Position numbers and translations under genes: made by a program
The notes under the pieces: model-generated
The model's input: only the letters and a program-made list of their open reading frames with translations
Told to the model about the DNA's origin: nothing
Database searches by the model: none
DNA from: Lophium mytilinum
Taxonomy: Eukaryota
Direction of reading: 5' to 3'
Length of the DNA stretch: 64,000 nucleotides
Assembly: GCA_010093605.1 (NCBI GenBank)
Contig: MU004190.1
Location: 558,001 to 622,000, forward strand
Shown: positions 36,751 through 63,667 of the stretch, piece by piece
Layout of the letters: the number at the start of each line of letters is the position of its first letter
Position numbering within the stretch: position 1 is the first letter of the stretch

Positions 36751-37837
36751 ATGATTTTATCAAAAGCGTTCCCTCGCACCCTTCACGGCGGCCAGTTCGC
36801 CCACCTAACCACATCCCCTTTTCATTCCCAAAAGAAATCCCTCTCATCCCTCCCCCTCAGCATCAAACCCTCTCCCTCAGAAAACTCCACCGGCCTCCTC
36901 TCCTGGCGAAACCTCCAAACCGCAACCCGCGCCCTCCACCGCGACGGCCTCGTCGTCATCGAAGATGTAATCGACCCCAACACCATCGACCACCTGAACA
37001 CCAAATTGGTCTCCGACGCCCGGACCCTCCAATCCGCCGGCGACGCCAGCCCCTACAACTACAACAAGGGCAACATCCAGCAAGACCCGCCCCTAACCCC
37101 CCAATTCTTCTCCCCCTCCGTCTTCCTCAACCCCCTAGCTCGCCAGGTCATCCACTCCATCCTGGGCCCTCGCTCCAGGCTCTCTTTTATATCGGCTAAT
37201 AGTGCTATGCCGCCTACACCGGACTCACCACCCCAGTCGCAGCCTGTCCACTCCGACGCCGACTTCGCCCACCCCGCGTCTCCATTCGCGCTGGTCGTGA
37301 ATATCCCGCTCATCGATATGACAATCGAGAACGGGAGCACGGAAGTCTGGCTCGGCACGCATAGCGTCTCTTCCGTCGCGGCGCAAGAGGGTGCGCATGG
37401 TGAGCGAGCTAGCGGACGGATCGCGTCGAAGCTATTAGAGGAGCGGAGAGAAGAGCGGCCGCCGAGCCAACCTACTGTCAAGAAAGGGAGTATTGTGCTT
37501 CGAGATCTGAGACTGTGGCATGCGGGGAAGCCGAATCTGAGTCAGGATGTGAGGGTAATGCTGGCGTTGATTCATTTCGCGGCGTGGTATAGGTACGTGT
37601 TTTCGTTCTCTTCGTGTGATGACTTGTAATGGGTTGAGGTTGATGGGGGATAGGAATCCGATGCGTGTGGAGTTTGATGAGGAGCTAAGGGAGGTGCTGG
37701 AGAGTGCTGGGGGGGATTTGCAGGTTCAGGGGGTTTTCATGCCGCGGGCGGAGTTGGAGGAGAGATATCTGAAGAGGGGGTTTGGTAATTCGTATGATTT
37801 TGATCAGCAGGATAGGTTAGAGGAGCTTTTTGAGTAA
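36751..37837 (+). CDS. Fe(II)/2-oxoglutarate dioxygenase, phytanoyl-CoA dioxygenase (PhyH) family
   Basis: LHRDGLVVIE, SQPVHSDADF (HxD), ENGSTEVWLGTH, RDLRLWHAGKPN...RVML; intron ~37593-37653. Confidence 0.88.
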
Positions 37838-39808: not shown

Positions 39809-41101
39809 ATGGACAAGAGGAAACGGTCTCCCTCACGCTCACCCTCTCGCTCACCTCCGCGACAACGAAAGAGGCCCGGAGCGGCTTCACGTCTCACCCA
39901 AGCGGATCGCGAAGCTGCTAAACAACGGCAAATTGCACGGGAACAGGAACAAGAAAAGGCAGCCTTGGAAGCAAACAAATCTCGAGGCGTACACGATGTC
40001 GTCAAGCAACATTACAACTTGGTCCCCGAGCGAGGCCGCGACTGGCGAAACACGGCCAGCAAGATCACAGGTCTTCGCAGCTACAACAATTGGGTGAAGT
40101 CATGCACCATTCAGAAGTTCATCGGCCCGGAGCGTGGCCTCAATGTGCTGGATATTGGCTGTGGGAAGGGTGGAGATCTGGGGAAATGGTCTTCGTCGAG
40201 GAAGGTGGCCCTCTACGTTGGATGTGATCCGGCCGATGTCTCCATCACACAGGCACAGGAGCGTTACGACAAGATGAAGCGGAAGCCTTTTCGTGCCGAG
40301 TTCTATGCCAAAGACTGCTTTGGGGAGACACTCGCCGATATCGAGATCATCAGGAATGTTGGCTTTGAGACAAATGCTGGACCGGGCGGCAATGCGACGG
40401 CTCAGCGATGGGGTCGGGGAGGCTTCGACATCGTTTCTATGATGTTCTGCATGCACTATGCTTTCGAGAGCGAGGAGAAGGCGAGAGGCATGCTGCGCAA
40501 CGTAGCTGGAGCGCTGAAGAAGGGCGGCCGCTTCCTCGGAACCATTCCCAACTCCGACGTACTGTCAGCAAAGGTCACAGAGCATCATAAGGGTGCGCCG
40601 AACGAAGAACAAGCGAACGGGTCGCCGAATTTCGATTCCGACGATGATTGGGACCCCGAGAAGATCATCGATGCACCAGCGCCGAAGGAGAGCAAAGAGG
40701 AAAAGGAAGAAGGACAGGAAGACGGGGAATTGGAAGACGAGGGCTTCGAGTGGGGCAACAGCATCTATAGGGTCAAGTTTCCCGGCAAGACACCCACAGA
40801 CGGTGTCTTCAGACCCCCATTTGGCTGGAAGTACTTTTATTTCCTGGAGGAGGCAGTTGAGGAGGTGCCAGAGTACGTTGTGCCTTGGGAAGCTTTCCGA
40901 GCACTCGCAGAAGAGTACAATCTCGAATTGCAATACCGTGCCGCTTTCAAGGACGTTTGGGAGCAGGAACGAAATGATCCAGAGCTGGGCCCCCTCAGTG
41001 AGCGGATGAATGTTCGTGATCGGACCGGAAGGATGATGGTGAGGGAAGAGGAACTCGATGCAGCGAGTTTCTATCACACTTTCTGCTTCTACAAAGTCTA
41101 G
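39809..41101 (+). CDS. ABD1: mRNA cap guanine-N7 methyltransferase
   Basis: LRSYNNWVKS, VLDIGCGKGGDLGKW, FDIVSMMFCMHYAFESEEKA, GGRFLGTIPN, VPEYVVPW. Confidence 0.96.
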   Translation: MDKRKRSPSRSPSRSPPRQRKRPGAASRLTQADREAAKQRQIAREQEQEKAALEANKSRGVHDVVKQHYNLVPERGRDWRNTASKITGLRSYNNWVKSCTIQKFIGPERGLNVLDIGCGKGGDLGKWSSSRKVALYVGCDPADVSITQAQERYDKMKRKPFRAEFYAKDCFGETLADIEIIRNVGFETNAGPGGNATAQRWGRGGFDIVSMMFCMHYAFESEEKARGMLRNVAGALKKGGRFLGTIPNSDVLSAKVTEHHKGAPNEEQANGSPNFDSDDDWDPEKIIDAPAPKESKEEKEEGQEDGELEDEGFEWGNSIYRVKFPGKTPTDGVFRPPFGWKYFYFLEEAVEEVPEYVVPWEAFRALAEEYNLELQYRAAFKDVWEQERNDPELGPLSERMNVRDRTGRMMVREEELDAASFYHTFCFYKV

Positions 41102-46715: not shown

Positions 46716-48301
46716 TCAGTCCGAGTCCGAATCCAGTTCCAAAGGATCATCAAGCGAACTCCCACACGTGCCACCTTTCCGCGGCCTTTATTTCGTTAAC
46801 TGCGGGCACAAGAGAACAGATGTAGGTATTGTACTTACACGAATGCAGCAGGGGAGGGAGAACGGCCCTGCCGAGCCATTTCCAATCGTAGCTGCGCAGC
46901 GCGGGAGGCGGCGGCGGCGGCTTCGTATTCGAGGCGGAGGAGGGAGGGGTTGGTGCGAGGTAGCTGAGAGCCGTGGGGAAGGGGAGGGAGTTGGGTGTCC
47001 GGGTCGGGTTTGATTCCTAGGCGGAATGGAGGGAGGAGGGGTTGGAGACGGGGGTAAGAGGGCGCTTGGGGGCCAGGGAGGGGCTCTTGCTTGATGAATT
47101 GGGAGAGAGGGGGGAGGGAAGGGAGGCCGTTGGGGGGTTGGGCGAGGGGCGCTTTGGGCCTGAAGATGGGACGGCGGGGGGCTGGATGGATTGGATGGAT
47201 CATTGGGCGGGGAACGTGGAATGGTTGCGGTCGTGGTGGGTTTGGTTTAGTCTGTGTGAAGGCGCTTGGAGTTGGCGGGTGTGAGAAGTTTAAGAGATCT
47301 GTGTGAGCAGGATGGGCGCTTCGTGGGAGCGGGTCGTACGCAGGAGGTGGAGTTTCCGGGGTGGTGATTGCCGACTGCATCTGCGATGAAGCTCGCATGC
47401 TGCGCGTCACACGTTGGTTGAGCATTGGCGCTGGTGGTAGTGAGCTCGCGGGTAATTGAGAAGTTGTCATCGCTCTTGGGGCGACAGTGAAGAAGTCTGA
47501 GATCTTACGGTAGCGGCTTTCTTGATCGGGAGAGAGTGAAAGAGGAGCTCCATGAGTATCTTCAAGACGAAGCCTCTTGGAAAGCGGTTTGGCTGGAGCG
47601 TCCCAATCCTCTTCTGATTCTGATTCTGATTCTGTTTTTGAGCTTTCTTCGGAAGTGTCGGGGGAGTCTTCGTTGTCCGTCAATACATCTTTCTCGTCCG
47701 TCCGATCTGGCTTCGTGCCCGGCTTTGGCAGAGGGCGTCTCTGGTAGTCGCTATATAAGCCTCGAGGGCGGCCGTCAGTCTGAGCTTGACTAGGATTGAG
47801 TAGGATAAGGTCGGTATCCGTCTCCTTTTCAGCTCCAGCTGTCTCCATCCCAAACTCTTGTACCAAAGTACGATCCTCATCCTTCTCATCAACCCGGCCT
47901 TCCTCCTCCGCCTTCATTTCCGCCTCCTTACAAAACCTTCTGTGCACCTCAATAACATCCCAATCCCTCAACCACGGAGTATCCCCCCCGATCCCCTCTT
48001 CCCGCCTTTTCCTAAACGCCGCAACCAACTCCTGCCGCACCTCCTCAAACCTCTCCTTTGTGTGATCCGATAAGTCGAACAACTCTTTCAAGAACTGGAT
48101 GCCCCAGTTCTGCGGGTTGTTCTCGGGCTCATCGGTGGCTTTGCCATTGTCATCGTGGATGCGGTAGCGGATCCCGGCGGGGATGCAGTCTAGAATTGAG
48201 GGCTGGCCCCAGTTCGCGGCGATTTGGGGAATGAGGCCGTCGACGTGGATTTGGCTCATGCGGGTGAGGGAGCTGTATTTGCGCTTTTGACCGCGGGCCA
48301 T
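46716..48301 (-). CDS. Unknown-family protein, paralog A (shared N-terminal domain, disordered linker, coiled coil)
   Basis: 488-aa ORF 46835-48301. A probable terminal intron 46786-46838 adds VPRKGGTCGSSLDDPLELDSDSD*. N-terminus aligns by eye with 49509-50657 and 60188-61570. Confidence 0.75.
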
Positions 48302-49508
48302 GATGGGCGGTGGTGTCGGTGAGGGCTGTGTTGGTGGCGATGGCGAGGGAATGGAAGAGAGGTAGGGCTTGGGGGTGGGAGAGTTAGGGTGAGGTGTGCG
48401 ATAGAGCTAGTTGGATGGTTAGGTGGATGTTGCTGAGAGCGGACGGCTGAAGATAGCTTGTGAAGGCTGCAAAGCAATGGGAGGGGTATTGGATATGGGC
48501 GATGATTGAGATCGTTCGTGATGATGGCAAGCGAAAGGTTATTCAGCAGCGGCTGCTCTGGAGAGTGAGCAGGTTACGGTCTGCGCAGTGAAGAGATTTG
48601 GTCACATCTACGATGGTCAATATGCAATGTTGCCGAGTTGAAGTGGCTAGCCTCGAGCGGTGACGAGACATGTGTGCGAAGGAAAGGAGATTATGTGACA
48701 TTATGTCTAGTTATGCGACATCATGTCGGCAGACTTACCCGGGCAGCGGAAAGGCTTAAGGCACCTGGATTGACGTGAAGAGCAGGCGTAGAAGGCAACC
48801 CAATCACTGCAATCCTTACTGTAAGTTCTACTGTAAATTTTACTGTGAACATAACAGCACCGTGACTGTACTGTTATCGTTCATGACAGTCCAGGACCGT
48901 CCCAGACTGTCGTATAGTGTTGTGGGGTGTCAGCGCATTGATTTAAGTGAATACTCTTGTGTCGCTCACGAAACTTAAGAAGATGTCAATCTGAGGGTGT
49001 CTGATTCTGGATGCTGAGGTATGTATGAGCTATCAGATGGAAAGAGAAAATCAAAGACGAGTGAGAACCACCAAACATCACTTTTCCGATACTGCATATC
49101 CGCCGCTCGCAAAACCTTGAAGTGGTAATGACTGAAGTGGAATGTTCGGCCTGCCACCACCGAGTGGCCAAATGTGGAAAGATCCTTCCTGAAGAACGCC
49201 ATAAGAAAGCCGATCGGGGATGTTAAGTTGAATAACCAGAAATTCATACTTTTGTATGGAAGCATAAGCCGGTGAATAGGGTTAGAATACTAGCATGCTA
49301 TATCCCCACCTGTTGCCATTTGCAGTACTTAAATTCTCCCAGGTCCTATGGCGTATTACCATAAAACGGTATCTTAACTGCTTCTGCAGTTACTTTTAGC
49401 CTCCTTGAAGGCTGTCCTAAACGCCTTTTACTAGACCATGGCTACACTAGCCTTAAGTTAAAGATTCCCTATTGGCGAACTATTGTCCCTTAGGGAAGAC
49501 CGTTAATC

Positions 49509-50657
49509 CTAGGTTGTCCATAATTTGCCATCATCTGTAGAGACTGCTGCGCACGCCTCTGGGATTCTTTTTTGGTCTTTACGTTGTTTCTTCTTTAGCT
49601 GTATCAGCTTTAGTACGGCCTCCTGTTCCTCGATTTTTAGGTCGAGGTCGGTGTCGCTTCCACTCGCTCCTTCTGAGCAAACAGTGGAGTCCAGGTAAGC
49701 TGTCGCTTTCGAGTGGGCAGCATTTTGTGGTGGAGGGGCCGGCCGCGCGTATCTATTGCTTGGATTGTATCCCGCATTAGAGTAAGGGGAGTTGGTTGTA
49801 GAAGCTGGACTCGGGAGATTCTGGGGATGTTGATTTTGATTTTGCCAGCCGTCTGGCCTTTGTCCTTGTGTAAAGTGTGATTGGTGTCTGAGTGGGAGCA
49901 TGGGATGCAGAGGTAAGGGAGCCGCATTGTTGCTAGAAGACTGGATTGGGGGCTGAACTTTGCCTTTACCCATAGGATATGGGACTGTGAGAGGTGAGTT
50001 AATGCCGGAAGCTGGGATTTCCGGGGCGGTGTTTACAACTGCAGACGATGAATGATGAGTGACTGCAGGTCCTGTCCTCACCGCTGATACTCGAGTTCTT
50101 GGAGCCGTTTGCGTCTGGTTGCCGCTGATGGAAAGGCCCGATGTAGGATTGGAAGCTTGCTGGTTGCTGCTCGGTCGCGCACGCTTCGGAGCTTTCACCA
50201 CACTGCTCGAATTTGCGCTGGCCGGTCGCTTCTTTGCCAACACCAAGGCTTCATGTTCTTCGTCCGTATCATCCGGAAGGAATTCATCTCCCTTGCTCTT
50301 GAATCGTTGAATGACTTCATCAATGTCTGCTGTGTCCAAGGGTTGACCGTCCTTCCCCTTAGCCACTAAGACAACCTTGAATTCCTTGCGAACGTCGAGG
50401 AGACGTCCCTCGGAAAGATCAGAGAGTCTTGCAAGCTTCTGGATGTAGCTATACCTCCACTCCTTGGGAGAACGCTCGGCCTCGCTCAGAGTTTTCCCAT
50501 TCTCGTCTTGCTTCCGAGGAAGGAGCTTGCCATCCGCGATCCAGTGGGAGAGGGGATTTTGCCCCAGAACCCAGTTTCTTCGAATACGATCGATTGAGCG
50601 TTTAACAGCCACTTGGCTTTGCTTTGAGAGCTTTTCGAAGTTTTTGTGAGGAGCCAT
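49509..50657 (-). CDS. Unknown-family protein, paralog B
   Basis: 382-aa ORF; same N-terminal motif pattern; C-terminal LDLKIEEQEAVLKLIQLKKKQ; putative 5'UTR intron 50733-50777. Confidence 0.75.
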   Translation of the reverse strand: MAPHKNFEKLSKQSQVAVKRSIDRIRRNWVLGQNPLSHWIADGKLLPRKQDENGKTLSEAERSPKEWRYSYIQKLARLSDLSEGRLLDVRKEFKVVLVAKGKDGQPLDTADIDEVIQRFKSKGDEFLPDDTDEEHEALVLAKKRPASANSSSVVKAPKRARPSSNQQASNPTSGLSISGNQTQTAPRTRVSAVRTGPAVTHHSSSAVVNTAPEIPASGINSPLTVPYPMGKGKVQPPIQSSSNNAAPLPLHPMLPLRHQSHFTQGQRPDGWQNQNQHPQNLPSPASTTNSPYSNAGYNPSNRYARPAPPPQNAAHSKATAYLDSTVCSEGASGSDTDLDLKIEEQEAVLKLIQLKKKQRKDQKRIPEACAAVSTDDGKLWTT

Positions 50658-52376
50658 CGTGTGAAGTCAGTGTCCTTCGGGCTGGAATATCGATGGTAAA
50701 GAGGAATTGTGATAAAGTGTCACCAAGACAGACTGGAAGAAGTTAGGACGAGCCATTGGATTTGGAGTTTAACTTACTGTCTTCTCACGCTCGAAAGCTT
50801 AGTAGTCGAGTAGAGCAAGGACACTGAAATGTGTTGCGAAGGTCAGTAAGGTAACAAGCAAGAAACGATGATGGGGGCGTTGATTGACGTTACCGGCTTG
50901 GACTACACGTACCAACCGCGGTCCGCTAGGTGAGGTAGTTTGTGCCGTAGAGGCCCTGTGTCGGAGGGTGCGAGACTTTGCCGTACTATCGAAGCTTTGA
51001 GGCGCAGGGACTAGGTAGCAGCCGTGGTGTTCGGATGGTTGCAGACCGTTGTTTCTGTAAGGCGCTGTCAATTAATGGAGCGAATTGGCGAGGTGGGCGG
51101 AGCGGATGTGTGGTAGAGGTTGTGGAAGACGCGATGGACGCTGAAATGAGGTACATACCCAGATAGAGAAGATGGGAGGTACGCCAACGGGCCTTGTTAC
51201 ACCTTCAGCGGACGGTTAAGAGACTCAGGAAGTAAAGAGTAAAGGAACTAAAGAGAAAGATTCATGTTTGTCTGGTGTGAGAAGAGGTGGAGGAGGATGA
51301 AGGAATGAAGTTGAAGGCGAGTGGAGGGCAGAAGGTCTTTAAATAGGCCGTGGGTCAAAGTCGAACGAGTTGATACGGGGCCAGCACAGGCCAGAGAGCG
51401 AACGAGTGAGGAGCAATAGTTGTCGACACGAAGCGCGGAGAGAGTGGCTAAGGAGATTGTGGTTGAGGTCGAGGTTCTTGGATTAGTGGCGGTGAGCGAT
51501 AGACGGTCAGAAGATGCTGGAGGATGTCTGGAGGACAGGGCAGCGGAGGAAGAAACGGGCTGGTATTGATGGGCGTGGAGTCCGAGTGGGATGTCTTAGG
51601 GTTGACGGAATATGGAAAGCGCGGAGAGAAGGGGGTTTGATTCGGATGCCGTTGATATGGAGGCTGATTCAGAGATGTTGAGAGTCCATTTTAGATTGTT
51701 GCATCGCCACGATCAGAGGAGACTGTGCCCAAAGGCAAGCAACTAATGTCTGTTCGTCTAGAAACATAAAGACAGGCATCAAGACAGTTATACCAACGAC
51801 ACAAATCTTGAATGGGTGCCAAACAGGTGAGAAAAAGGAGATTATAACGTTGTTATCATACATCTCAATTTGCATGTAGTCGCGATCGTGAACTTTGAAG
51901 CTAATTCTATACAACTTCTACTGCCTTCAGTCTGCAGTAATACTTGCTATTGCTATAGTTCAGGCCGAAGCTATTAAAGTTTGAGTCGAGCAAATGGAAA
52001 TCTATTCCCGTACCTATTCTGGGCACTCAGTCTACCCGCACACGCTAGGAGTACCTGGTGGAACCTGCTATACGCGTACGATCAATACTCCAACGTAGTT
52101 CAATTGAAAGCTTCCAAGAAAGTTAAACGACATCCTTAGACGTCCTACGGGTGGTCTGTATTGAACAGAGCATGGCTGAGAGGAGAGGCGTCGTTGAGCA
52201 GTGTAAACTCCGCGTGTCTGACGTTCCAAACTCGCCGCTTCAATTGGCTTGGTACGGAAGGCAGCGATTACAGTGAACTCGGTCTAGTATCTACATACAG
52301 TAGATGGCTAGCTGCCTTATCGAGTGGGCTGATGGCGGGGAGAAGAATATGCCACGCTTGGTACCTTGCCGAATAG

Positions 52377-52406
52377 AGCTAAAGTTAAAGTACTTTAACT
52401 TTAGCT
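52377..52406. repeat. Perfect 30-bp palindrome with no spacer
   Basis: agctaaagttaaagt|actttaactttagct is its own reverse complement. Confidence 0.95.
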
Positions 52407-53161
52407 TCCTTAGGCTTAGCGCAGGTTGGGGTCACTTAACTAACCGCCGTCAACCTCCTGACGTTTAGCCACCATTTATTAGGCTAATTGAACGATCAGA
52501 GGATGAGAGACTTATGGAACGATGCCGTTAAGCTATCGTCGGCTGAGAACAGGCGCCTTCATGCCGGCCTGAACCCGCGGACGTGAAGACCCTAGGTACA
52601 CGCTGATTCCATTCGCGTCCAAGCTTGTGGAGTCAGAAATGCAAGACAGGAAGCCATGTCGCTGCCCGTATGGTATCGAGTGCGATGATTGCAGTTCAAC
52701 ATACTGGAGAAGATCGTGTAAGAGTCTCGCAAAGGCCAAGAGATTTTGTAGCATGCCCGCGGGTGTATGCAGCGATCATGTCGTTCGCCCGTGTGCTGCG
52801 CGAGCTACCTTCCCCATGAGTCAGCTTTGAAGCCGTATCGTACTGTATGTGCTGCAAATTGGGAACTTAACGGGCACCCGCCTTCGGAGTATTGAGTAAT
52901 CCTGAGTGATCTAGAACGACTAACATATCCTACTCGGGCGCATGATACCATGGAAATGTGGAATTGTGACGAAACAAGCCAATGCGGCGACTGCAGACCC
53001 CGAACTCGAGTAAAGAGCAGTATGTGAGAGCAACAGAGGATTCCCAAAGTCTGAATAGATAGAGCTATATTCAGACGTATTCCTAGGATCTAAGGGTATA
53101 TGCCGTCAACGGCAATGACTGTCGATGGCGAAAGTGATGTAAGAAAAGACTAAATCTCTAA

Positions 53162-54442
53162 CTATCTGCAATTACGACAGGTATGTTCCTGGCCAAGAGC
53201 ACGCGCTCTCTCTTCCCTCTTGGTCTCGAAGTCGAAATTGATCATGTCCATTTCCGCCGCTGCGCGAATCTTCCTTGAGCTCACCTCGCCCATGTACGCC
53301 TCTGAGAGGCGTGTACGTATCTCTAACCAATGGACTTCTCCCTCGGCACCCCTCATCTCAGTTTCCGCCGCAAGCTTGCGCTTTTCTGCATCGTGCCAGG
53401 CGTTCTTTACGTCCTCCATCCGGCCTTGCATGTCCCGCACTCTTTGTTCTGCATTTTGCAGCTCTATTCCCTCTTTCTCATAGCGAAGTTTCGCGGTTTC
53501 GTACGATATCTTCAAGTTCTCCAGGACATTTTGCATGTCTTGACCGCCGGTGACGTTACTAGATGTTCTGAGGGGTGTCTCGACCGTGCTAGGATTTTGG
53601 AAAGACGTTACGTTGGCATTAGACCTCTGCAAGCCAGCAGCGTTCCTATAGTTAGGTCTTAGTTCTGGCAAAATTTTGATAGAAGCGGTTGGAGAACTTA
53701 CCTTTGCTCGTCGACTCGTGACGCATTGACTGCAAGGTGACCAGGTCGATAGACAAGGCTGTCAGCTAGATCATTAATGAATCAAGCCATCTCATGCGGA
53801 TAGCCTTCCCGGCAGCGATATATGCATTCTTGCTTCAGTATCTGACATGCGCCACACTGTGGTGTTTTGTAGTCGCACTTGTCGCCCGTCTCTATGCATC
53901 TCTCGCAACCTGCGACGGCTACGCATCTTCTCTTCGGAGGCCTTCCTTCTTAATCCCGGGTTATGTCTCTTTCACCCGTCGCGTTGGCAGCATCCGTAGC
54001 ATTGACTTTATGGCTTCCGGTTGGGAGTGGGCCCGCCATTTCGCGTCCATCAGTGTTCTGTCGACAGGTGTTAGAGTGATTTGGCATTATCGCAGAAATG
54101 ATAGATGGGACGCGATACCACTGCTGGGATCGACTGTGGAGCTAGAGGCTTCGAACCTCCAGGTATCAAAAGACCTACCGGGCATGCACAGTCTTGGTTC
54201 AGCTGCTGGCATCTTCTGCACTTGGGTTTTGCTCCGTCGCACCTTCCCTCCAACGTAAAACAAGACTTGCATGCCCAATAAGAGGGCTTGGACGCACAAG
54301 CAGGAGTGTCTAGAGGATGGAGATCTGGGGCGGGTAATATCTGCTGACTGAGAGACAAAGCGGGTGGTTCTGCGCTAGATTTCGCAGTGAACCAGTTCTT
54401 CAGCCTTGATTTGGCGGTTCCATTGTTGGAAGTCATCGACAT
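53162..54442 (-). pseudogene. Tandem double Zn(II)2Cys6 plus coiled-coil protein with one in-frame stop
   Basis: Clusters CKSCFTLEGRCDGAKPKCRRCQQLNQDC (54188-54271) and CERCIETGDKCDYKTPQCGACQILKQEC (53824-53907). Phase-0 intron 54058-54118; TAA at 53950-53952; coiled-coil last exon (ORF 53162-53671). Confidence 0.7.
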
Positions 54443-55751
54443 CGTCGGGATATATATATGTATATGTAGAGAGTTCGATTGAGGCTGAGATTGATTGACC
54501 TCGCTGAGCGGATACCCTTCAAAGCACACTGAAGGGTGGGCGAGCGTTGGTGCGAAGTCAAATGATACCTGAACTCGGCGATTAATCTGATTGATCCTCG
54601 ATATCAGTATCGGGGTGAGTGAGAAAGATGCAAGAGATAACGCGACATGCGCAGCTGTTAAATAGTCGATGTCGTTGAGGTGCAGAGTACGAAAGCCGCC
54701 CCGGGTATCTCTTCAATACTGTGCAGCGAACGGCTTTCTACCCCTACAAAAGCTATTCCAGTCAAAGACTCTTTCTGATCAGCTTCCAGTATCGTACATT
54801 ACCCTCGCAGCCCCCTGCACGGTGACCACAGCATGCATCCATGGGCGGCTGTAGCTCTGATTGCACGGCTTCCACATTTTTTGCGTAACCAAGGAAGAAG
54901 GTGGTGTGAACGGTGACTAGATCTATGCAAGAGAAATCTACAAGGGTCTAAACACTCCCTACCAGTGGCCAGGGCAGCAGGAGACGAATACTCACTCTAT
55001 TACAATATTCCCTCTTAAATCATAGCTTAGTGGGCCTCATCGAGTCCCAGCACTTGCCATCTCAGAGAGATGCGAAGGAGACTAGCCCACACCTACTGCA
55101 GCCTTCCATTGAGTCACAGATCACGTCTCATCATCTTCGTCTGTGCCACTTTCTCGCGGGAACTTGCAGCAAGCAGAGGTCCAGTGGGTGACACTGCACA
55201 CGGATTTCGTCTTGCCCCATCCAAGGGCTATCAGAGTGGAGAAGAAGGTGAATGTGATATAACGAGAGCAAACGGAACATGCAGCCGCACCTGCGAGGTT
55301 GCGTGACTGGCGCCGCTTGGTCAGCTACGAAGGAGAAAGCGGGCCAGACTCCATGATATGGCATAGAAGCTGACGAGAAGGAAGACAGAAGGCTGATTGA
55401 AGATGTTGTGATGTATGCAGGACGAGACATCTATCTTCCAGTGACACACAGCTAGAGAGGAGTGAAAGTGGTGGCGGTCGCGCTAGCCAGAAGAGGCTTA
55501 AATCAATCTAGCCACACTAAGCCTTGGCTGGCGTAGCGGTTTCCACCGTCACCAGGTGCACCTACCTACTAACCTTCCTACCATCCCGCCTCTTTACGAC
55601 TCGCCTTCTTCTGCCTCCCCATCATCGATTATCCCCAATTGTTCCGCCTCTTCACGCGTGGCGCTTTGCAAATTCGGCCGACGGACGGAGGGAGCTTGCA
55701 TTGAATTCGTCGTCGTACCCCCACGACCGTTCCAGTATTTCACAGCTCGCT

Positions 55752-57065
55752 ATGGCAGCGTATTTCAACCTTATTTTGCAGGGTACGTTGCCATTATCAT
55801 ATGGTTATAAATGGCCTTTGCTTCTCACGAAATATTAGGGACGGTCTATTTTGCTGCACGGCGTTCTGCCGAAGACGACGACATGCTACAAATGTATTCA
55901 AGCAAGCTTCTGGGCCCAGCAAGAGGTGCGTAGTACCATCATCGCTAAGCATGCGGACGATGAAAAGGCGCTCATAGACATAGAATCCACGTTTGATACT
56001 TTGTACTCGCGGGTTGCCCGAAATTGGCAGCAGCGGGACGACGTCCTTACGCCCTTTAACGACCGCCGATGGTCTCATGTTAGATCAGTCTGGAGTTTTG
56101 ACCTTGATAGTGATATTCTGCGATTGGATAAGAAAGATCGCAACCTTTGGGTCCCTCTTAATCTTATTCGCCAGCGCTATATAACCATTTCCGATTTCGA
56201 GCCTTATGAACCACCGCCTACAATCGCCAAACACGCCTTACAGTCCATGGCCGTCTACCCAACGCCATGTTGGAGAATAAAACGCAAGGAGATCGACCTG
56301 CAGCGCATAGAGCGGCACAAGGCTTTTATCTCCAAGATACTTGCCGACTTTGCATTCCAGTGGAGACACGTCCTTAATGGTCGTTACAACAACTCTACGT
56401 TTCGAAAGTTTGCCTATGCCATTATTAGTATTGTCACATTGGACTTTACTGTTGAAGAAGTAACGCTCTCACGCCAAGGCCTCGGTGGCTTCTTGGTCTG
56501 GATAGACAGACTCCCGGAGTGGGATTTTGCAAGCAGATATATCGTCAGGGTCGGCGAGACGTCCATCGTTATCTGCCAGCATGCTCCTCACGCCGTCGCG
56601 CTGATCGGAGAAGATTTCCGGAAGCGGATTCTGTCTACTCCCGATTCGGAAGACCGAAGTTTTACTTACCTCATACTCTCGGTGAGGGAGCTTATCCTGT
56701 ATCGTATGAACAACCAGCGCCCAAAATACACGGAACCCATGCGTCTGTTTGATGGGACGCATCCCCCACCTGACGAAGCCATTGAGCTTCTTCTCCAGGC
56801 CACGCAGACCAGCACGAGCGCCCTTGGGGCTCCTCTCCGCAAGCTCCCTGTTGAGCTGCAGGATGCGATTCTTGACAACGTGTCAGCGGGACCAATTGAG
56901 AGTGCTAGGGTCGGCTGCCTGCTTGACGCTGGGTCGTCCTTTTCATGGAAGTGCGGCAAACGAAACATTGAAAGGGAAGAAGGCCATCGGCATAGAACGC
57001 CTTGGACTCCTGTGGAGTCGCATATCTGTTTCGGCGGCTACCGTAGTGGGATAGCATACAAGTGA
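55752..57065 (+). CDS. Hypothetical protein with an F-box-like motif near the C-terminus
   Basis: Introns 55783-55838 and 55926-55977 give MAAYFNLILQGTVYFAARRS...LLGPARDIESTFD..., joining the 404-aa ORF; LRKLPVELQDAILDNV. Confidence 0.7.
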
Positions 57066-58472
57066 ACGTGTTCGGAACGCCCATGGTGAGATCTCGATCT
57101 AGTCCGTCGAGCTATCGCATGGTATGAAGTTTGACGACTCCATTTCCTAAGATTCGCCTTGAAACATCGACGGTGTCTTCACGTAAAGCCCGGCTGCCCC
57201 AACCACCATCATCGCTGCCTACGTGCCGCGCTTGCTAGCCAAACTCTGGCTTCTGAGGATTCTAACGCAGTATACCCATTTCTGGCGAGCTGCATTCGCC
57301 GCCCTCGCTAGCACTGGTAAGAGACATGGCTTCGAGCCTTAGGTGCTTGACTGTACAGCTCGAATTCGGACGCAGCTTCCCGTACGTCCGATGCCGTCCG
57401 TTACCCGCAATGAGATTTAGCTTTCAATGCAGCTCGACGGAGTTGTGCGAGCTCGACGTCCTGGATGCAGCTCGGCGTGCAAGGCACCTTGTGACACCTT
57501 TCCGCAGGTGGTCCACCGGTGACGCGTCTCTTTTCATCTGATCATTTTGTAATTGGTATTAGAAGTATCATCCGCGGTGTTTTAGCCTCGCCTATCGCTG
57601 TGTGGGCGGTTGGTCTATCGGTCTTGCATATTCTGCTGAGGAATTTGCTCTTCGATACGTCGTCGCTCTACCTCGGACTGCTAGCTTATCGGACATACAA
57701 GGTTCTGCTGGAGGGCTTGAGGTCCTAAAAAAATTCGTTCAATTAAACCAATCAGCATTTCTTGTCGTATTTCACCGCGTTACACCAAGGCCTCCTGCAG
57801 ATTGTCCCTCGGACGTGTGAAGAGAGTGTAGAAAAAGTTTGACTCGGCTGGAGTATTGACCGGATGCGCGTAGCAGCTTCCGCAATGTCCTACTGAATGG
57901 ACACGTGCAATGGGTGGGCAAACGCTACATGGAAGCACCTTTCGGTACTCCCTGAAAGAGGCTGCTGCGGCCACTCGGCCGAATCTTCTACTGCCACGCC
58001 CCTGAAAGAATTACATGCAAATGTGCGTCGAACCAGGCATTCGGAGTGCAAATATTTGGCGATCCGGAGCGTTTGCTTTTGGCAGAATGCACGGTAAACC
58101 GTTCTCAAGCTCTGACGAACCCTTGTACACAGGTTATGAATCGCAGCATGAAGGTGGAGCAGAACGGAGAGCATGAGATGAGCTCGGGTTCCACTCTTTC
58201 CAACATGAACATTGACGTTGTCAGCCGAGTAAGCGGAGACTGGATGTATGGTCTCTCGCTTCCTTCGATCGCTTGTCGCATGCACAAGTAACGAAAACAT
58301 GTCCACAATGAACCTTCGCCAGCCTTCGTTCGACTGGGCATAGAGATGTGGTGGGAGCGACGTCCCGAACGGCTCTATGCAGGGCGTGCTCGGCCTGCTG
58401 CAAATGGCGTCCAGGGGCTCTCGTCATAAGCCCTGATAAGGTGGCTTTCCGTGCGCTTCGCTTGAATACAGC

Positions 58473-58732
58473 CACAGTAGGTGTCAGGAGAGCTGTCACC
58501 CCCCAAATTACTAGGGGAAAAGTCCACCACGCTCGAAATATTTGGGTCTCAGTTGCGTGATACCTAAACAACGCCGGTTTAGACAGCTCTGCGTACTTAA
58601 ATTTCAGCAATTGCTTCTTCTTGTCGAGTTGTTGAAATTAGAAGTCTCGTCGTGAACCGATTTTCACGGGTCTGATTGGTTGATCGGCCCGCGGAGGATT
58701 GGGGGGTGACAGCTCTCCTGTCACCTACTGTG
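58473..58732. mobile_element. Non-autonomous DNA transposon (MITE), 260 bp, 34-bp TIRs, 4-bp TSD CAGC
   Basis: cacagtaggtgtcaggagagctgtcaccccccaa (58473-58506) matches the reverse complement of 58699-58732 at 33/34; cagc at 58469-58472 and 58733-58736. Confidence 0.85.
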
Positions 58733-60187
58733 CAGCTTCTTGCCACATTTCGTGGTTGGTGTATTCTGTAAATGCTGCGTAACGAAAGCTTTCTAACCCT
58801 GCAAAGGCTATTCAGGCCGATGGAATCTCTCTCATCAGTTTCCAGTACCGTAACTTACGCTCGCAGCCACCTGCTCGCTGACCACGACCTGCGGCAACGA
58901 GCTATACTGTCGATGTTATGTCACAGATCACTTATTCCGATGCTCGCTGGTTCCATATCGGCTGGTGTTCGAAGACACTATCATCTTCAAAATGAGGGCA
59001 TCTCAATGGAGTGCTTCTAAGACGCGGAGTCTTCGTTGCCCAGCTTCATTTTGAAGTGCTGCCCGCAGAAACAGGTTGATTTCTCTTCAATGGCTGTGAC
59101 AGTGAATTGATTCCGATCATGACATTTGAAAGTCAGCAAAAACGTCATTTCCATAATTTGCCTCTACCTCTTACCGCCCGAGTTCAGGAAAGCAGCCAAC
59201 CCACAGCTCCATGCACGCCCCCTGACGTCAAGTCGGCACTCTGTGGGTCAGAGCTGGATTTTGCCACAGCGTACCAGGTATAGATGTTGCAAACCCCCTC
59301 AGGGCCAAAGTTCATCATGGGAGCACACATAGGCTAGTAACCTGTAGCTTCCCTGACTTCCTGTAGCCACCCGTCGACCGAGAAGCTCCCCGCGCGGAGG
59401 CTGGAGCTTGGACTTGTCATGTCTACTGGGTTGGATATCTGCAGGAAACTTGACCGGCTTATCACAGTACTGCAATTCTGTCTGGTACTTAAACCCTCTC
59501 ATCTTCGCTCTTGCTGCCTTATCCACTTACCTACCCTCCGCCTCTTGTCTTCATAGAATACCCTTCTTTCACGTCGTCGGCTTCTGAGCTTTATATATGT
59601 CTTCATCACTCTGAACTTCGTTCATACCTTCAGGCACCTCGATCTTCTCAAATCGTTTGCTCTTGCTTCACTCATCGATCAAGGTCCTTCTACCCGATCT
59701 TACTTCTCAGGTTCTTATACTCCCCCGCTCTTTCTCCAATATATCGCAAGAACTGCCATTTAAGAGCACCGACAGCCTTGTTTTTGCTGTCTGCTACCCT
59801 CGACTCTTACCACTCCTACCTCTTTCGACTACCTCCCAGAAGTACTCCTGGTACTTCGCTCTACTTTGGACCAGTTTTACCCTCGACTCCCACTACACAC
59901 TCGAGCACACCTCCCCTACAGGTGCGTCACAAATCTTCCCTCTCGCGTGCAATGCTTATGTTTCTCTGCCTAGTCAGATATCGCTCGTTTCAGTGTGTAG
60001 TTCTGTTAGACTACCCTGAATCCCTCTTGCTACCGAGTACTGTCCAGTTTGGAATTCCATTACCGTCTTTTTGTTTAACCACCTGCGAGACAGTAAGTGA
60101 TACGCCCGTGCTTCATCACTTCTCTTCAATCTCACTGGCCTAACTCGTGCATCAAAGTTACAGATGTTCAATCATCTCCAGCACAAC

Positions 60188-61570
60188 ATGCCTTCTTACT
60201 ACTTCAGGAAACCTTTCATCGAACTAACGGATAAAAGCCAAAGGGAAATGCTCCGGAATATCGAGACGGCCGCTTTTAATTGGCGTAAAGACAACCTCCT
60301 TCTGTGCATACCACGGGACATGGTGCCTTACAAGGTGAGCATCCCCGAAGACGAATTCGTAGAGAGGGAGCATGACCCAAACGAATGGGGATTTTCGTTG
60401 ATAAGATCCCTCCGGAGATTTTCGGATCAGACAAAGGGGAACTTGCCGAAAGCACAAGAGACATTGAGGGCCGCTCTTGAACAGCAGAGAGATGAGAGTC
60501 TAACTATTAAAACTGTTGAAACCGCTCGGATCATTATGCGCAGGCAGCACGCTACTGTTGAGCCACCACGCAGGGCAGAGCCAACTCTACAGGCAGATTC
60601 CGCGCCATTGTCTACTTTTACGTTCGCACCTCTACGTCCTCCTCAACCAAGCCTTCAAGGCCTATTTCATCATGGCCTACCTCCACTGGAACCTCATAGG
60701 CCAACAAACGGCCTTCCTACACTCGAGCCGTTTGGATTTGCCCGGGGCTACCAGCAACCAAGGCAGGGTGATGCTAGCAGCGGAGCCCTCATCGAAAACG
60801 TACCCCCCGAGCCCCAGCGGTATCCATCAATTAGTCGACACGAGGCCAGTCCCGCTGAGCGCCCATGGGGTTTCACTATTTCCAACGGACGCAGAACTCC
60901 TCGCCCCATGAATTCCTCATCTAGCGTCCCTAGTGTTCCACAAAGCACTAGACCAGCATCTAGGCATGAGACGTACTTACCGCCCACGCCTCTCTCTCGT
61001 TCCTCTGTCTCGCGCTCAACTGCTTCAAATCAAGCTTTCTCTTCCAACCAACTCGAACAACCACGGATCGAGAGCGGCGAAGCATTCGGGGAGCATCGAC
61101 CTACCCTCGAACCACGCGAGGAAAATTCGCCCAGCTCTAAGCCTGTAGTGAAGCTTGAAAACGGCCCCGAAGTTGACGGCAATGCAGTCACTAGGGCGGA
61201 GAGCCTAAAGATACTTAAACTCAGAGAAAAACACCTCGAAGATAAGATCGAATTCTTAGAAGATAAGGCGAAACTCTCAGCAATCAAACTGGAGCGGGCG
61301 CTGGCCGAAGATCAGAGGGCGCTGGCTGAGAAGCGAGCTCGAGGTGCGACTGCGCACCTTGCAATTCTCATCGATGATAATGAGAATGACGATAATGATG
61401 GTCCGAATACCACTCAGCCCACTCGACGGCGAGATCGGGAGTCCTCGCATGGTGTTGATTCGGATGGCGGGCAGCCCACTCGGCGGCGAGATCAGCGCCC
61501 GTCGCATGGTATGCTGTCCGTGCCAGGGAATTCGGGAAGTTCGCAGGAGCCTAATCTGTCCTTTTCATGA
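60188..61570 (+). CDS. Unknown-family protein, paralog C
   Basis: ORF 60164-61570 (start ATG 60188 or 60164); same N-terminal motif pattern; coiled coil LKILKLREKHLEDKIEFLEDKAKLSAIKLERAL; putative 5'UTR intron 60093-60163. Confidence 0.75.
   Translation: MPSYYFRKPFIELTDKSQREMLRNIETAAFNWRKDNLLLCIPRDMVPYKVSIPEDEFVEREHDPNEWGFSLIRSLRRFSDQTKGNLPKAQETLRAALEQQRDESLTIKTVETARIIMRRQHATVEPPRRAEPTLQADSAPLSTFTFAPLRPPQPSLQGLFHHGLPPLEPHRPTNGLPTLEPFGFARGYQQPRQGDASSGALIENVPPEPQRYPSISRHEASPAERPWGFTISNGRRTPRPMNSSSSVPSVPQSTRPASRHETYLPPTPLSRSSVSRSTASNQAFSSNQLEQPRIESGEAFGEHRPTLEPREENSPSSKPVVKLENGPEVDGNAVTRAESLKILKLREKHLEDKIEFLEDKAKLSAIKLERALAEDQRALAEKRARGATAHLAILIDDNENDDNDGPNTTQPTRRRDRESSHGVDSDGGQPTRRRDQRPSHGMLSVPGNSGSSQEPNLSFS
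61415..61510 (+). repeat. In-frame 57-bp-period repeat in paralog C
   Basis: QPTRRRDRESSHG / QPTRRRDQRPSHG; cagcccactcg at 61415 and 61472. Confidence 0.8.
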
Positions 61571-61747
61571 AGGTAGCTCTCCATTACTTTTTTATATACG
61601 TCTGAGTCACTCTATCATACAAATATAACTAAATCTAACTGTTTCACTTCCCTATCCTGAGATCAATGAGTGACCTACCTTCTCAACACCCGGGCTAGCA
61701 TACTGATAAAACAATCAAGTATTTCTAGCGGAGAAGTTATTTTCCCA

Positions 61748-63667
61748 TCAACCAGCGATCTTCTTACCCCGTCCTGTCTCAGCCTCTGCTTCCTCAGTCT
61801 CCGCTCTGCAAGACTTCTCCTCCTTCCCACCCAACCCCCCCTCCCCTTCATCAGCCACCTTCCCCCCCTCCGCCTTCTTACCCTTAACATCCCTCCTCAC
61901 ACTCCTCCACTCCAACCCCGCCGCCCCAATCACCGCCAAACACGCCATCACCAACCCCACCCGAAACACCACCCTCAGCGAATCATTATACGCCCCCAAC
62001 GCCATCTCCCGATACTCCGCCGGAACCAGCTTAAGCAGTTCCGTCGCCCCCGTATCCCGAACCAACGCAGCACTGAAATCAACCCCCGGAACGCCAGCAA
62101 GGCGCTCCACCAACTCCCTCCCCAGCACATTCCCCCCCACACTCAAAAACACCGCGCCCGCCAACTGCTGCCCAAAAAACATAACCCCCGCCCCCATCGC
62201 CACCTCCTCCCTCGCTAGCACCGTCTGCGCCGCCATATTCGGCGCCTGCCCCGCGAACCCGAAGCCCAGGCCGTAGAGGAACTGATATCCCACCCACGCG
62301 CCTGTGGAGGAGCGCGGCTCGAGGGTAGTTAGCAACCCGGCACCGACGGCGGTGAGGCAGACGCCGAGCAGCGCAAACGGGGTGTAGTAGCCGAGGCGGG
62401 AGACGAGGAAGCCGGTGAGCAGGGAGGCGAGCACGACGGGGAGGAGGAGGGGGAGGAGGTGGATGCCGGAGGCGGCGGCGGAGAGGGAGAGGGTGGCTTG
62501 GAAGTAGAGGGGGAGGTAGTAGACTATGGTTTCGTGTTAGAGGGGTGGTATAGGTGAAGGGGGCCCCACCCTGGGGAGGGACGTACTGAAGAGCATTTGG
62601 TGCGCGCCGAGGCAGGAGCTGAGCCAGAACCCGGCGAGGATGCTGCGTTGCAGGAAGATCCGTGGGGGGAGGATGGCTTGGGTGGGTTGCCAGGCTTGGA
62701 TGAAGGCGAAGGCGAGGAGGAGGAGGGAGGCGAGGATCAGGAGGGCGATGATGCGGCTGGAGTTCCAGGGGTGTGTGGTGCCGCCCCATTGTAGTGCGAG
62801 GCATAGACATATGACGCCGGGGAGGAGGGCGAGTAGGCCCAGGGCGTTGAGTTGGTGTAGTTTGTCTTTGAGAGGGATGTTGGTGGTGGGACGGGAGGGG
62901 ATGTGGAGGAGGAAGAAGACGAGTATCATGACTGCACCGCCTAGGGGGAGGTTCAGGTAGAAGCACCATCGCCAAGTAACGTCTGTGGTGAAAGCGCCAC
63001 CGATTAGGGGCCCGGCTACTGAGGAGATGCCGAAGACGGCGCCGAAGAAACCTTGGTATTTGGGGCGTTTGTGAAGGGGGACGGCGTATACGATTATGAC
63101 CATCTATGGCAGCATAGTGTAAGCGAACGGATAGTAAAGATGGGCCGGATGAGATGATGACGGGGAATGTTAAGCCGTGGTGCCCTAAGAAAAAGATAAA
63201 CGTACAACGCCCGAGAGAACACCTCCCGATCCCAGTCCAGCAATCGCTCTACCCAATATAAAAGCGATCGAGTTCGGGGCCGCGCCACAAAGAGCCGAGC
63301 CAACCTCAAACACCACAATAGACGCTAGAAACGTGGCTTTGATGTCGAAGACTTTGTACAGCTTCCCGAACACCAGCTGGAACGCACAGCTAGTGAGTAG
63401 GTACGCCGTGCCATACCAGCCAATATCGCCTGCCGAGTTGAATTCGTTGGTGATTTGGGGGATGGCGGTCGATATAATGAGGCGATCCAAAGACACTAAG
63501 AACATGCCGACGAATATGGATGCCATTATCAGTGCGAGCTTGAGACCAGACGGGTAGACGATGTCGGTGGGCATGCCCTTGGTTTCCTTGATCTTTGCGC
63601 CATCCAGGGGCGCGGATGGTGGCACATTGTTCCCCTTCGATTCGGATTCTTTCTCCTTCAACGACAT
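61748..63667 (-). CDS. MFS drug:H+ antiporter, 14-TM (AflT-like toxin efflux pump)
   Basis: [86 protein letters not shown]; introns near 63104-63206 and 62525-62586. Confidence 0.93.

Follow-up and report, generated by a model that had tools for sequence, protein, structure and literature searches.

Three open reading frames (ORFs), here called A, B and C, lie between positions 46,716 and 61,570 of a 64,000-nucleotide (nt) stretch of the genome of the fungus Lophium mytilinum (Mytilinidiales, Dothideomycetes; assembly GCA_010093605.1, contig MU004190.1, positions 558,001 to 622,000, forward strand; hereafter the window) and raise the question of whether they are related and, if so, what kind of protein they encode. 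A first-pass annotation of the window had taken them for clustered, highly diverged paralogs of an old, locally expanded and lineage-restricted family without a named domain, each consisting of an N-terminal helical domain, a low-complexity linker and a short C-terminal coiled coil, and had listed chromatin or transcription regulation, allorecognition and drive as possible functions. The results described below indicate that the three genes very probably belong to a real, ancient and unnamed family. The genes and their parts, in window coordinates, are as follows.

46716..48301, minus strand: gene A, spliced, 510 amino acids (aa); exon 1 46839-48301, intron 46786-46838, exon 2 46716-46785 including the stop
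46835-48301, minus strand: ORF A, unspliced, 488 aa, uninterrupted
47897..48301, minus strand: N-terminal domain of A, residues 1-135, from AlphaFold2 and a profile match (E 1.6e-44)
46946..47896, minus strand: linker of A, predicted disordered and rich in Pro, Ser and Thr (34.8% together), residues 136-452, containing the basic cluster KRLR (residue 242) and a marginal helix (residues 258-276), from AlphaFold2 and family alignment
46862..46945, minus strand: C-terminal amphipathic helix of A, residues 453-480
49509..50657, minus strand: gene B, 382 aa, intronless ORF; an identical protein is among the public-library representatives
50250-50657, minus strand: N-terminal domain of B (profile match E 5.7e-30)
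49566-49655, minus strand: putative C-terminal helix of B, residues 335-364
60164..61570, plus strand: gene C, 468 aa, uninterrupted ORF
60188-60586, plus strand: N-terminal domain of C (profile match E 3.1e-33)
61199-61342, plus strand: putative C-terminal helix of C, residues 346-393

All three ORFs were found where the first-pass annotation had placed them, with the motifs it had quoted present in their translations. A and B form a tandem, 1.2 kb apart, and C lies 9.5 kb past B, its domain alignment beginning near the second Met, at 60188. Homology among the N-termini was evident from BLASTP comparisons of A with B (E 1e-12, 31% identity over 120 aa), A with C (E 2e-9) and B with C (E 2e-6). 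The similarity was also far beyond chance when compared with shuffled sequences; thus, Smith-Waterman scores for the three pairs were 132, 113 and 96 against shuffle means of 28-30 (z 18.7, 18.3 and 13.7), and in none of 1000 shuffles for each pair was the observed score reached. The three genes are true, old paralogs, as had been claimed. A profile of the three N-termini, searched against the 1302 six-frame ORFs of the window, matched only A, B and C, the next match having an E of 0.6, and the same three ORFs were the only matches in the window of a 32-sequence profile, in which A, B and C are themselves included and of which the pairwise BLASTP comparisons are independent. The signature of the domain reads [FY]-x2-L ... 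I-x2-N-W ... [IV]-P-x2-I-x-P-R ... E-x-[DN]-P-x-[NE]-W-G ... L-x3-S-x2-T-K-G. A further motif, NGLP[ST]L, had been described as shared by A and C; it is present in both (BLAST E 0.31), but since the motif is missing from the Mytilinidion orthologue of A while being retained in the C lineage, its sharing between A and C is likely due to chance.

The longer of the two models of A is preferred here. Its translation is identical to that of a public model (P0004, 'hypothetical protein BU16DRAFT_618631 [Lophium mytilinum]'), which the unspliced ORF also matched at 100% identity, and the stop codon of that spliced model explains position 46716, at which the first-pass annotation had begun the region. 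The intron is 53 nt long (GTAAGT...AAAG), and the TAA stop of the 488-codon ORF sits within the GTAAGT donor. Removal of the intron adds 22 residues ending in DDPLELDSDSD, a tail like the acidic C-termini of relatives (EPHVVDDN, EEPHVLE, SDPWILE), and because of this resemblance the spliced form was taken as functional; the Mytilinidion orthologue of A has no acidic tail at its end. Retention of the intron would yield a 488-aa form without the tail and splicing the 510-aa form with it, so that splicing could act as a switch between two C-termini.

The composition of the three genes was ordinary in GC content (50-53%), and Pro, Ser and Thr made up 35-36% of their linkers. GC skew was strongly positive (0.19-0.23) at 48001-52000 and negative (-0.20) at 60001-62000, signs that mirror the opposite coding strands of A and B as opposed to C and the C-rich sense strands that proline codons produce. 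Within the linker of A, residues 253-271 (47489-47545, minus strand) contain SRYRKISDFF, which we take to resemble a PCNA-interacting (PIP-box-like) or FF-type short linear motif. The Mytilinidion orthologue keeps SRNQKISDFF at this place. The stretch falls within the marginal AlphaFold2 helix at 258-276 (predicted local distance difference test, pLDDT, about 57-70) and was not seen in other family members.

The extent of the family was determined by an exhaustive profile search of 1.84 billion representative proteins, in which 55 matches were obtained at the cut-off of E<=1e-3, 12 of them at E<=1e-10. Organism names, obtained for 22 of the 30 matches looked up, were those of Dothideomycetes in 21 cases and of a coral in one. 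The named members comprise three proteins from Mytilinidion and three from Lepidopterella, proteins from the Pleosporales genera Lophiotrema, Clohesyomyces, Delitschia, Westerdykella, Aaosphaeria, Periconia and Amniculicola, and proteins from Zalaria (Dothideales) and Coniosporium. The family thus spans the Pleosporales, Mytilinidiales and Dothideales, plus Coniosporium, and is not lineage-restricted in the local sense that had been proposed. With a Pyrenophora relative of A (P0039) as query, 155 Pleosporales-type proteins were matched at E<=1e-3. Among the best 120 of these 155, which include proteins from Alternaria, Bipolaris, Parastagonospora, Plenodomus, Ascochyta, Corynespora and other genera, the named ones were 'hypothetical' or 'uncharacterized', one JGI metagenome row was labelled exonuclease V beta subunit, and none had a precomputed Pfam domain. 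Some members, P0012 and P0026 among them, contain two to four tandem copies of the domain, which therefore behaves as an autonomous module. The coral match (P0008, Desmophyllum pertusum, 982 aa) was rejected as an artefact, in which about eleven 74-residue repeats of about 6 bits each summed to E 5.9e-18; this protein also gathers many spurious Pfam matches and illustrates how repeat proteins contaminate profile searches.

The closest known counterparts are Pleosporales proteins such as Plenodomus lingam LEMA_P065430.1, Pyrenophora tritici-repentis L13192_10770 and Parastagonospora nodorum HBI56_038080, which have the same N-terminal domain, a linker with the basic cluster, the helix and an acidic tail, and which form the sister clade of A in the tree described below. 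They differ from the Lophium proteins in being shorter (about 300-320 aa), in occurring as one copy in each of the 17 stretches inspected and in having an additional conserved segment, first acidic and then basic (SYFEELVEP...KRLRR...GWERPEK), which is absent from A, B and C. In the literature, supplements being outside the search, no paper was found on locus tags of the family, including LEMA_P065430 and BU16DRAFT_618631, or on its peptide motifs, and none on a Dothideomycetes-specific protein family of this kind.

The age of the three lineages was assessed from a quick maximum-likelihood tree of 54 domain rows with SH-aLRT (Shimodaira-Hasegawa-like approximate likelihood ratio test) support only, from which P0008, the duplicate P0004, three multi-stretch matches below threshold and domain stretches shorter than 80 aa were omitted. 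A paired with Mytilinidion P0005 (support 94), and this pair was sister to the whole Pleosporales clade (91/94). C formed a clade with P0006 and Mytilinidion P0007 (98), which Coniosporium P0057 joined next (87); a tblastn comparison of C with residues 426-817 of P0007 gave 31% identity (E 4.6e-44). B formed a long branch and was left unplaced in the tree, while a third Mytilinidion protein, P0045, had A as its best tblastn match (E 2e-11) followed by B (E 3e-4). As judged from these sequence relationships, the A, B and C lineages split before the divergence of Lophium and Mytilinidion, and those of A and C before deeper divergences in the class. A split of this age contradicts the earlier description of the family as locally expanded and lineage-restricted.

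Local expansion is likewise not what was seen at 17 Pleosporales-type metagenome loci, inspected over up to 10 kb on each side (less on short contigs) and seeded by Pleosporales-specific patterns, so that only A-type loci could seed. At all 17, the stretch contained one family copy only, and no window ORF other than A had a counterpart there at E<=1e-8. Linkage outside the window, judged from accession or locus-tag order and contig sizes alone, nevertheless suggested that paralogs lie near each other in Mytilinidion and Coniosporium. Thus, 11 accessions separate P0045 from P0007 in Mytilinidion (KAF2804532, KAF2804543), on a contig that matches that of P0005 in size, and in two species of Coniosporium the distance between P0057 and P0043 is 7-8 locus tags (H2199_005972, H2199_005979); the contigs of P0018 and P0021 are both 7493 long. 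Gene order in Dothideomycetes is reportedly scrambled within chromosomes ('mesosynteny'; PMC3219968, PMC3516569), and if old paralogs had stayed linked against such a background, this would deserve notice.

In two diverged loci of the Pleosporales type, a UPF0029-family gene was divergently paired with the family gene, 1.1-1.2 kb upstream of it.

L005, 8067-8873, minus strand: family-gene/UPF0029 locus
L014, 8095-8922, minus strand: family-gene/UPF0029 locus

Constraint on the N-terminal domain was evident from comparison of A with its Mytilinidion orthologue, in which the domain was 82% identical (102/125) as opposed to 48% (154/320) for the linker. Among 12 distinct Pleosporales-type first exons, the nonsynonymous rate (dN) of the domain was lower than that of the linker in 66 of 66 pairs, and Nei-Gojobori estimates of omega (the ratio of dN to the synonymous rate, dS), which are rough, had a median of 0.084 for the domain (range 0.037-0.332, 46 computable pairs) and of 0.257 for the linker (37 computable pairs). 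These figures indicate, at the level of sequence, that the domain is under purifying selection in the Pleosporales-type relatives.

A compact fold, comprising four helices and a beta-hairpin within about 125 aa, was predicted by AlphaFold2 for residues 1-135 of A with the 32-sequence alignment (mean pLDDT 94.3, predicted template modelling score 0.85). Its elements are a helix at 14-30, a hairpin at 47-49/55-59 and helices at 68-80, 85-102 and 113-134. For full-length A, pLDDT was above 88 in the domain, mostly 42-57 over residues from about 148 to 451 and 85-94 in a helix at 452-479. The proposed architecture of domain, disordered linker and C-terminal helix was thus recovered for A, the coiled-coil part being the weaker.

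Searches of Pfam, of the Protein Data Bank (PDB) by sequence and of PDB structures with Foldseek gave no significant match, in line with the earlier statement that no named domain is present. Thus, A had no Pfam match at E<=1, and B and C had only TFIIA (E 0.54) and DUF719 (E 0.35), respectively, both below cut-off and outside the N-terminal domain. When the 32 domain sequences were searched singly at E<=10, 12 Pfam families appeared, each in one member of the 32, and among 53 relatives, 51 had no family at E<=1e-3, the exceptions being P0007 (Zn_clus) and the artefact P0008. Pfam matches to HET, NACHT, NB-ARC, kinase, nuclease and bZIP (basic leucine zipper) domains were absent from A, B and C, as were matches to Zn_clus (PF00172), which was found only in the neighbouring gene and in P0007. 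The best PDB match by sequence had an E of 0.3 with the 3-sequence profile and of 0.06 with the 32-sequence profile, Foldseek returned no PDB match to the A domain at E<=1e-3, and the ESM Atlas gave nothing usable for A residues 1-135 or for P0039. The N-terminal domain of the DNA polymerase alpha B subunit (2keb, 4e2i, 8b9a chain B), the small helical lid subdomains of AAA+ proteins (ATAD1 7upr, RuvBL 2xsz, CbbX 3syk) and helix-turn-helix DNA-binding domains of the ParB/SopB/VirB type are candidates for a similar fold, none being a Foldseek match at E<=1e-3. Judged from the predicted model, the domain is without a clear solved structural relative.

The C-terminal helix could be aligned in all 20 full-length members. 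Every one of the 20 has a hydrophobic residue in two of the columns, and 17-19 have one in several others; these positions alternate and form no clean heptad. In the first half, four columns are acidic in 10-14 of the 20 members, and in the second, three are basic in 11-17. A profile of the helix built without A, B and P0005 detected the held-out members P0016 (E 2e-6) and P0034 (E 1e-4). The helix is thus a real module of the family. A and B fit its acidic-then-basic pattern, and the helix of A, which is 83% identical (29/35) to that of its Mytilinidion orthologue, is supported by position, structure prediction and orthologue identity, whereas those of B and C are putative assignments made from the sequence pattern. 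Of the C-terminal coiled coils that had been claimed for all three proteins, the helix of A was predicted with confidence, while homology among the A, B and C helices was not significant. In the linker, a basic cluster (K-[KR]-x-[KR]) is positionally aligned across the family, and all 8 members inspected contained K[KR]x[KR], a nuclear import consensus. A and many relatives end in an acidic tail that follows the pattern [DE]-P-[HWL]-x-[LV]-[DE]. The isoelectric point (pI) of the N-terminal domain ranged from 5.5 to 9.7 in five members, being 5.5 in Pyrenophora.

What these proteins do can be answered only in conditional terms. The reading preferred here places A, B and C, as three ancient paralogs, in a Dothideomycetes-wide family, absent from Pfam, whose members would act as nuclear adaptors or regulators; taken as a whole, its likelihood is put somewhat short of even, and that of its mechanistic part, a nuclear and self-associating adaptor, lower still, as a tentative proposal. 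The N-terminal domain would serve as a protein-binding head, and the disordered Pro/Ser/Thr-rich linker of 200-300 aa would carry the basic cluster as a nuclear import signal. The C-terminal helix would associate with itself. The simplest arrangement would be antiparallel, with the acidic half of each chain lying against the basic half of its partner, and such pairing may also occur between paralogs. A nuclear location is suggested by the positional conservation of the basic cluster and by K[KR]x[KR] in all 8 members inspected, a protein-binding rather than a DNA-binding head by the variable pI of the domain, and antiparallel pairing by the acidic-first, basic-second polarity of the helix. A further hint of a nuclear role comes from the 823-aa model of P0007 from Mytilinidion resinicola, which contains a Zn(2)-Cys(6) cluster (residues 158-191), the orthologue of C (426-823) and, preceding the cluster within the first 130 residues, a degenerate but collinear copy of the domain; this copy is without the E-x-DP-x-NW core, but its score of 14.7 bits was not approached in 2000 shuffles, the highest of which reached 6.9.

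Several observations weigh against this reading. The helix profile built without A, B and P0005 gave E 6 for A, E 21 for C and no match for B, and in pairwise comparisons of the C-terminal segments of A, B and C the observed scores were reached by 42, 616 and 16 of 1000 shuffles. The K[KR]x[KR] motif is short and can arise by chance in basic linkers, and the spread of domain pI means that no common charged surface is evident. In the quick tree, 22 of 51 inner branches were unresolved and a long-branch warning was given, B being on such a branch; the omega values are rough because dS was mostly above 1 (saturated). The degenerate domain copy of P0007 is without a counterpart in the window, and P0007 is probably a merged model of a Zn(2)-Cys(6) gene and the C orthologue, so that the link to a Zn cluster may be an annotation artefact. 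Finally, a remote superfamily link could lie beyond the reach of the searches, which covered Pfam, the PDB, Foldseek on the PDB and the ESM Atlas.

Among other explanations, the proteins might be non-nuclear scaffolds that organise a cytoplasmic assembly at the cytoskeleton, septum or cortex. A folded head, a long linker and a short helix form a generic arrangement that is also typical of cytoplasmic scaffolds, and the best PDB sequence row of the 32-sequence profile (E 0.06) was the F-BAR septation protein Imp2; however, that row is not significant, no BAR fold was present among the best 50 rows of the fold search, no signal peptide or membrane segment was noticed in the A, B and C translations when read by eye without a predictor, and the conserved basic cluster, with K[KR]x[KR] in every member inspected, fits nuclear import better. 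A cytoplasmic scaffold is accordingly regarded as unlikely. Rather less probable is a DNA-binding function of the N-terminal domain, by which the family would consist of sequence-specific transcription factors dimerising through the C-terminal helix. Helices 68-80 and 85-102, separated by a short turn and lying beside the hairpin, would suit such a function, as would the Zn(2)-Cys(6) gene within the cluster and a KRGRP stretch in the linker of one Pleosporales member, which we liken to an AT-hook. Nevertheless, a conserved DNA-binding surface would hardly be expected of a domain whose pI differs so widely between members (5.5 to 9.7), the only helix-turn-helix-type Pfam rows (HTH_IclR and HTH_DNAJC9) appeared in one member each of 32 at E about 0.1, and neither a bZIP match nor a bZIP-style basic region directly before the helix was found. 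The family does resemble bZIP-type and other dimeric coiled-coil regulators, so far as can be inferred, in having a short C-terminal amphipathic helix with basic residues after a disordered region, but differs from bZIP proteins in the missing Pfam match, the lack of a clean heptad and a charge polarity that suggests an antiparallel arrangement, the bZIP zipper being parallel.

Similarly improbable, and a shade more so, is a wider proposal in which an undescribed, Dothideomycetes-specific interaction fold is used by linked paralogs that hetero-oligomerise through their C-terminal helices and that, together with the embedded Zn(2)-Cys(6) regulator, make up a conserved regulatory module. The paralogs of Mytilinidiales and Coniosporium would then stay within a few genes of each other, in spite of the scrambled gene order reported for the class, because they act together, and the Mytilinidion regulator would have gained its degenerate domain copy. 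By contrast, the allorecognition or drive function that the first-pass annotation had entertained is very improbable in the form of a young, locally expanded and lineage-restricted family. The paralogs are indeed clustered and highly diverged, and seemingly lie near each other in other genomes, but the family is class-wide with ancient duplications, the A lineage is single copy at 17 of 17 Pleosporales-type loci, only three copies occur in 64 kb, and HET, NACHT, kinase and nuclease domains are absent. Moreover, 82% domain identity between genera and an omega of about 0.08 represent a strong constraint, the opposite of what is seen in fast-evolving recognition genes, and hence lend this function no support. 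That the ORFs are chance ORFs, pseudogenes or decayed mobile-element copies is scarcely credible. Low-complexity regions can keep reading frames open, and RNA cover on B and C is thin; against this stand ORFs of 382-488 codons that are conserved across genera, purifying selection, a confidently predicted fold, a contig on A from a sequencing run that contains spliced neighbours, a GC content of 50-53% and the absence of further copies from the window.

What is novel is the protein family with its domain, which the sequence and fold searches made here linked to nothing named; no new kind of mechanism is claimed. Unnamed lineage-specific families are common in fungal genomes, and the finding is less surprising than a new system would be. 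The A-type gene is conserved and apparently single-copy across the Pleosporales, an order to which Pyrenophora, Alternaria, Bipolaris, Parastagonospora, Plenodomus and Ascochyta belong, and many crop pathogens are among the fungi over which the family is spread. Being class-specific, constrained and probably nuclear, the protein offers fungal biologists a sensible target for knock-out and is a candidate for a new Pfam entry.

Evidence of transcription came from a run (X1) that was labelled RNA by guess only (share 0.14) and whose contigs cannot rank expression. In the two genes between B and C, four short segments bounded by canonical intron ends are missing from X1 contigs, and no depth was found in 7 of 30 bins, so that the run behaves like complementary DNA. 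One X1 contig of 462 nt lies on A (47220-47681) with no differences, while cover on B and C was thin or nil, too thin for interpretation. The two genes between B and C, with their parts, are listed below.

53079-55423, minus strand: Zn(2)-Cys(6) gene, not a family member; a single transcript by X1 contigs
54071-54442, minus strand: Zn-cluster ORF, cluster at about 54110-54352; Pfam Zn_clus E 0.0011, 19.4 bits (curated cut-off 21)
53818-53907, minus strand: second Zn-cluster-like stretch, within the 53079-55423 gene
53162-53536, minus strand: coiled-coil ORF, C-terminal in the 53079-55423 gene, joined to the Zn-cluster ORF by X1 contigs
about 53645-53700 and 54058-54178, minus strand: introns of the Zn(2)-Cys(6) gene, skipped by X1 contigs, with CT..AC ends
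55700-57748, plus strand: gene with X1-supported introns at about 55782-55837 and 55924-55981 (GT..AG)

A simple three-exon splice of the Zn(2)-Cys(6) gene keeps in-frame stops. In a tblastn comparison, residues 138-211 of P0007 matched this gene with E 2.6e-11. The 1-kb regions upstream of A, B and C had no 9-mer in common and were not enriched in CGG/CCG pairs. Genes elsewhere in the window are ordinary ones, as follows.

26040-31070, plus strand: HECT/TRIP12-like ubiquitin ligase (Pfam)
36751-37629, plus strand: PhyH dioxygenase
39809-41101, plus strand: mRNA cap guanine-N7 methyltransferase
63185-63667, minus strand: MFS transporter fragment

A 272-aa ORF at 56247-57065, within the 55700-57748 gene, had no Pfam match, and its stretch LPVELQDAILDNV appeared F-box-like by eye.

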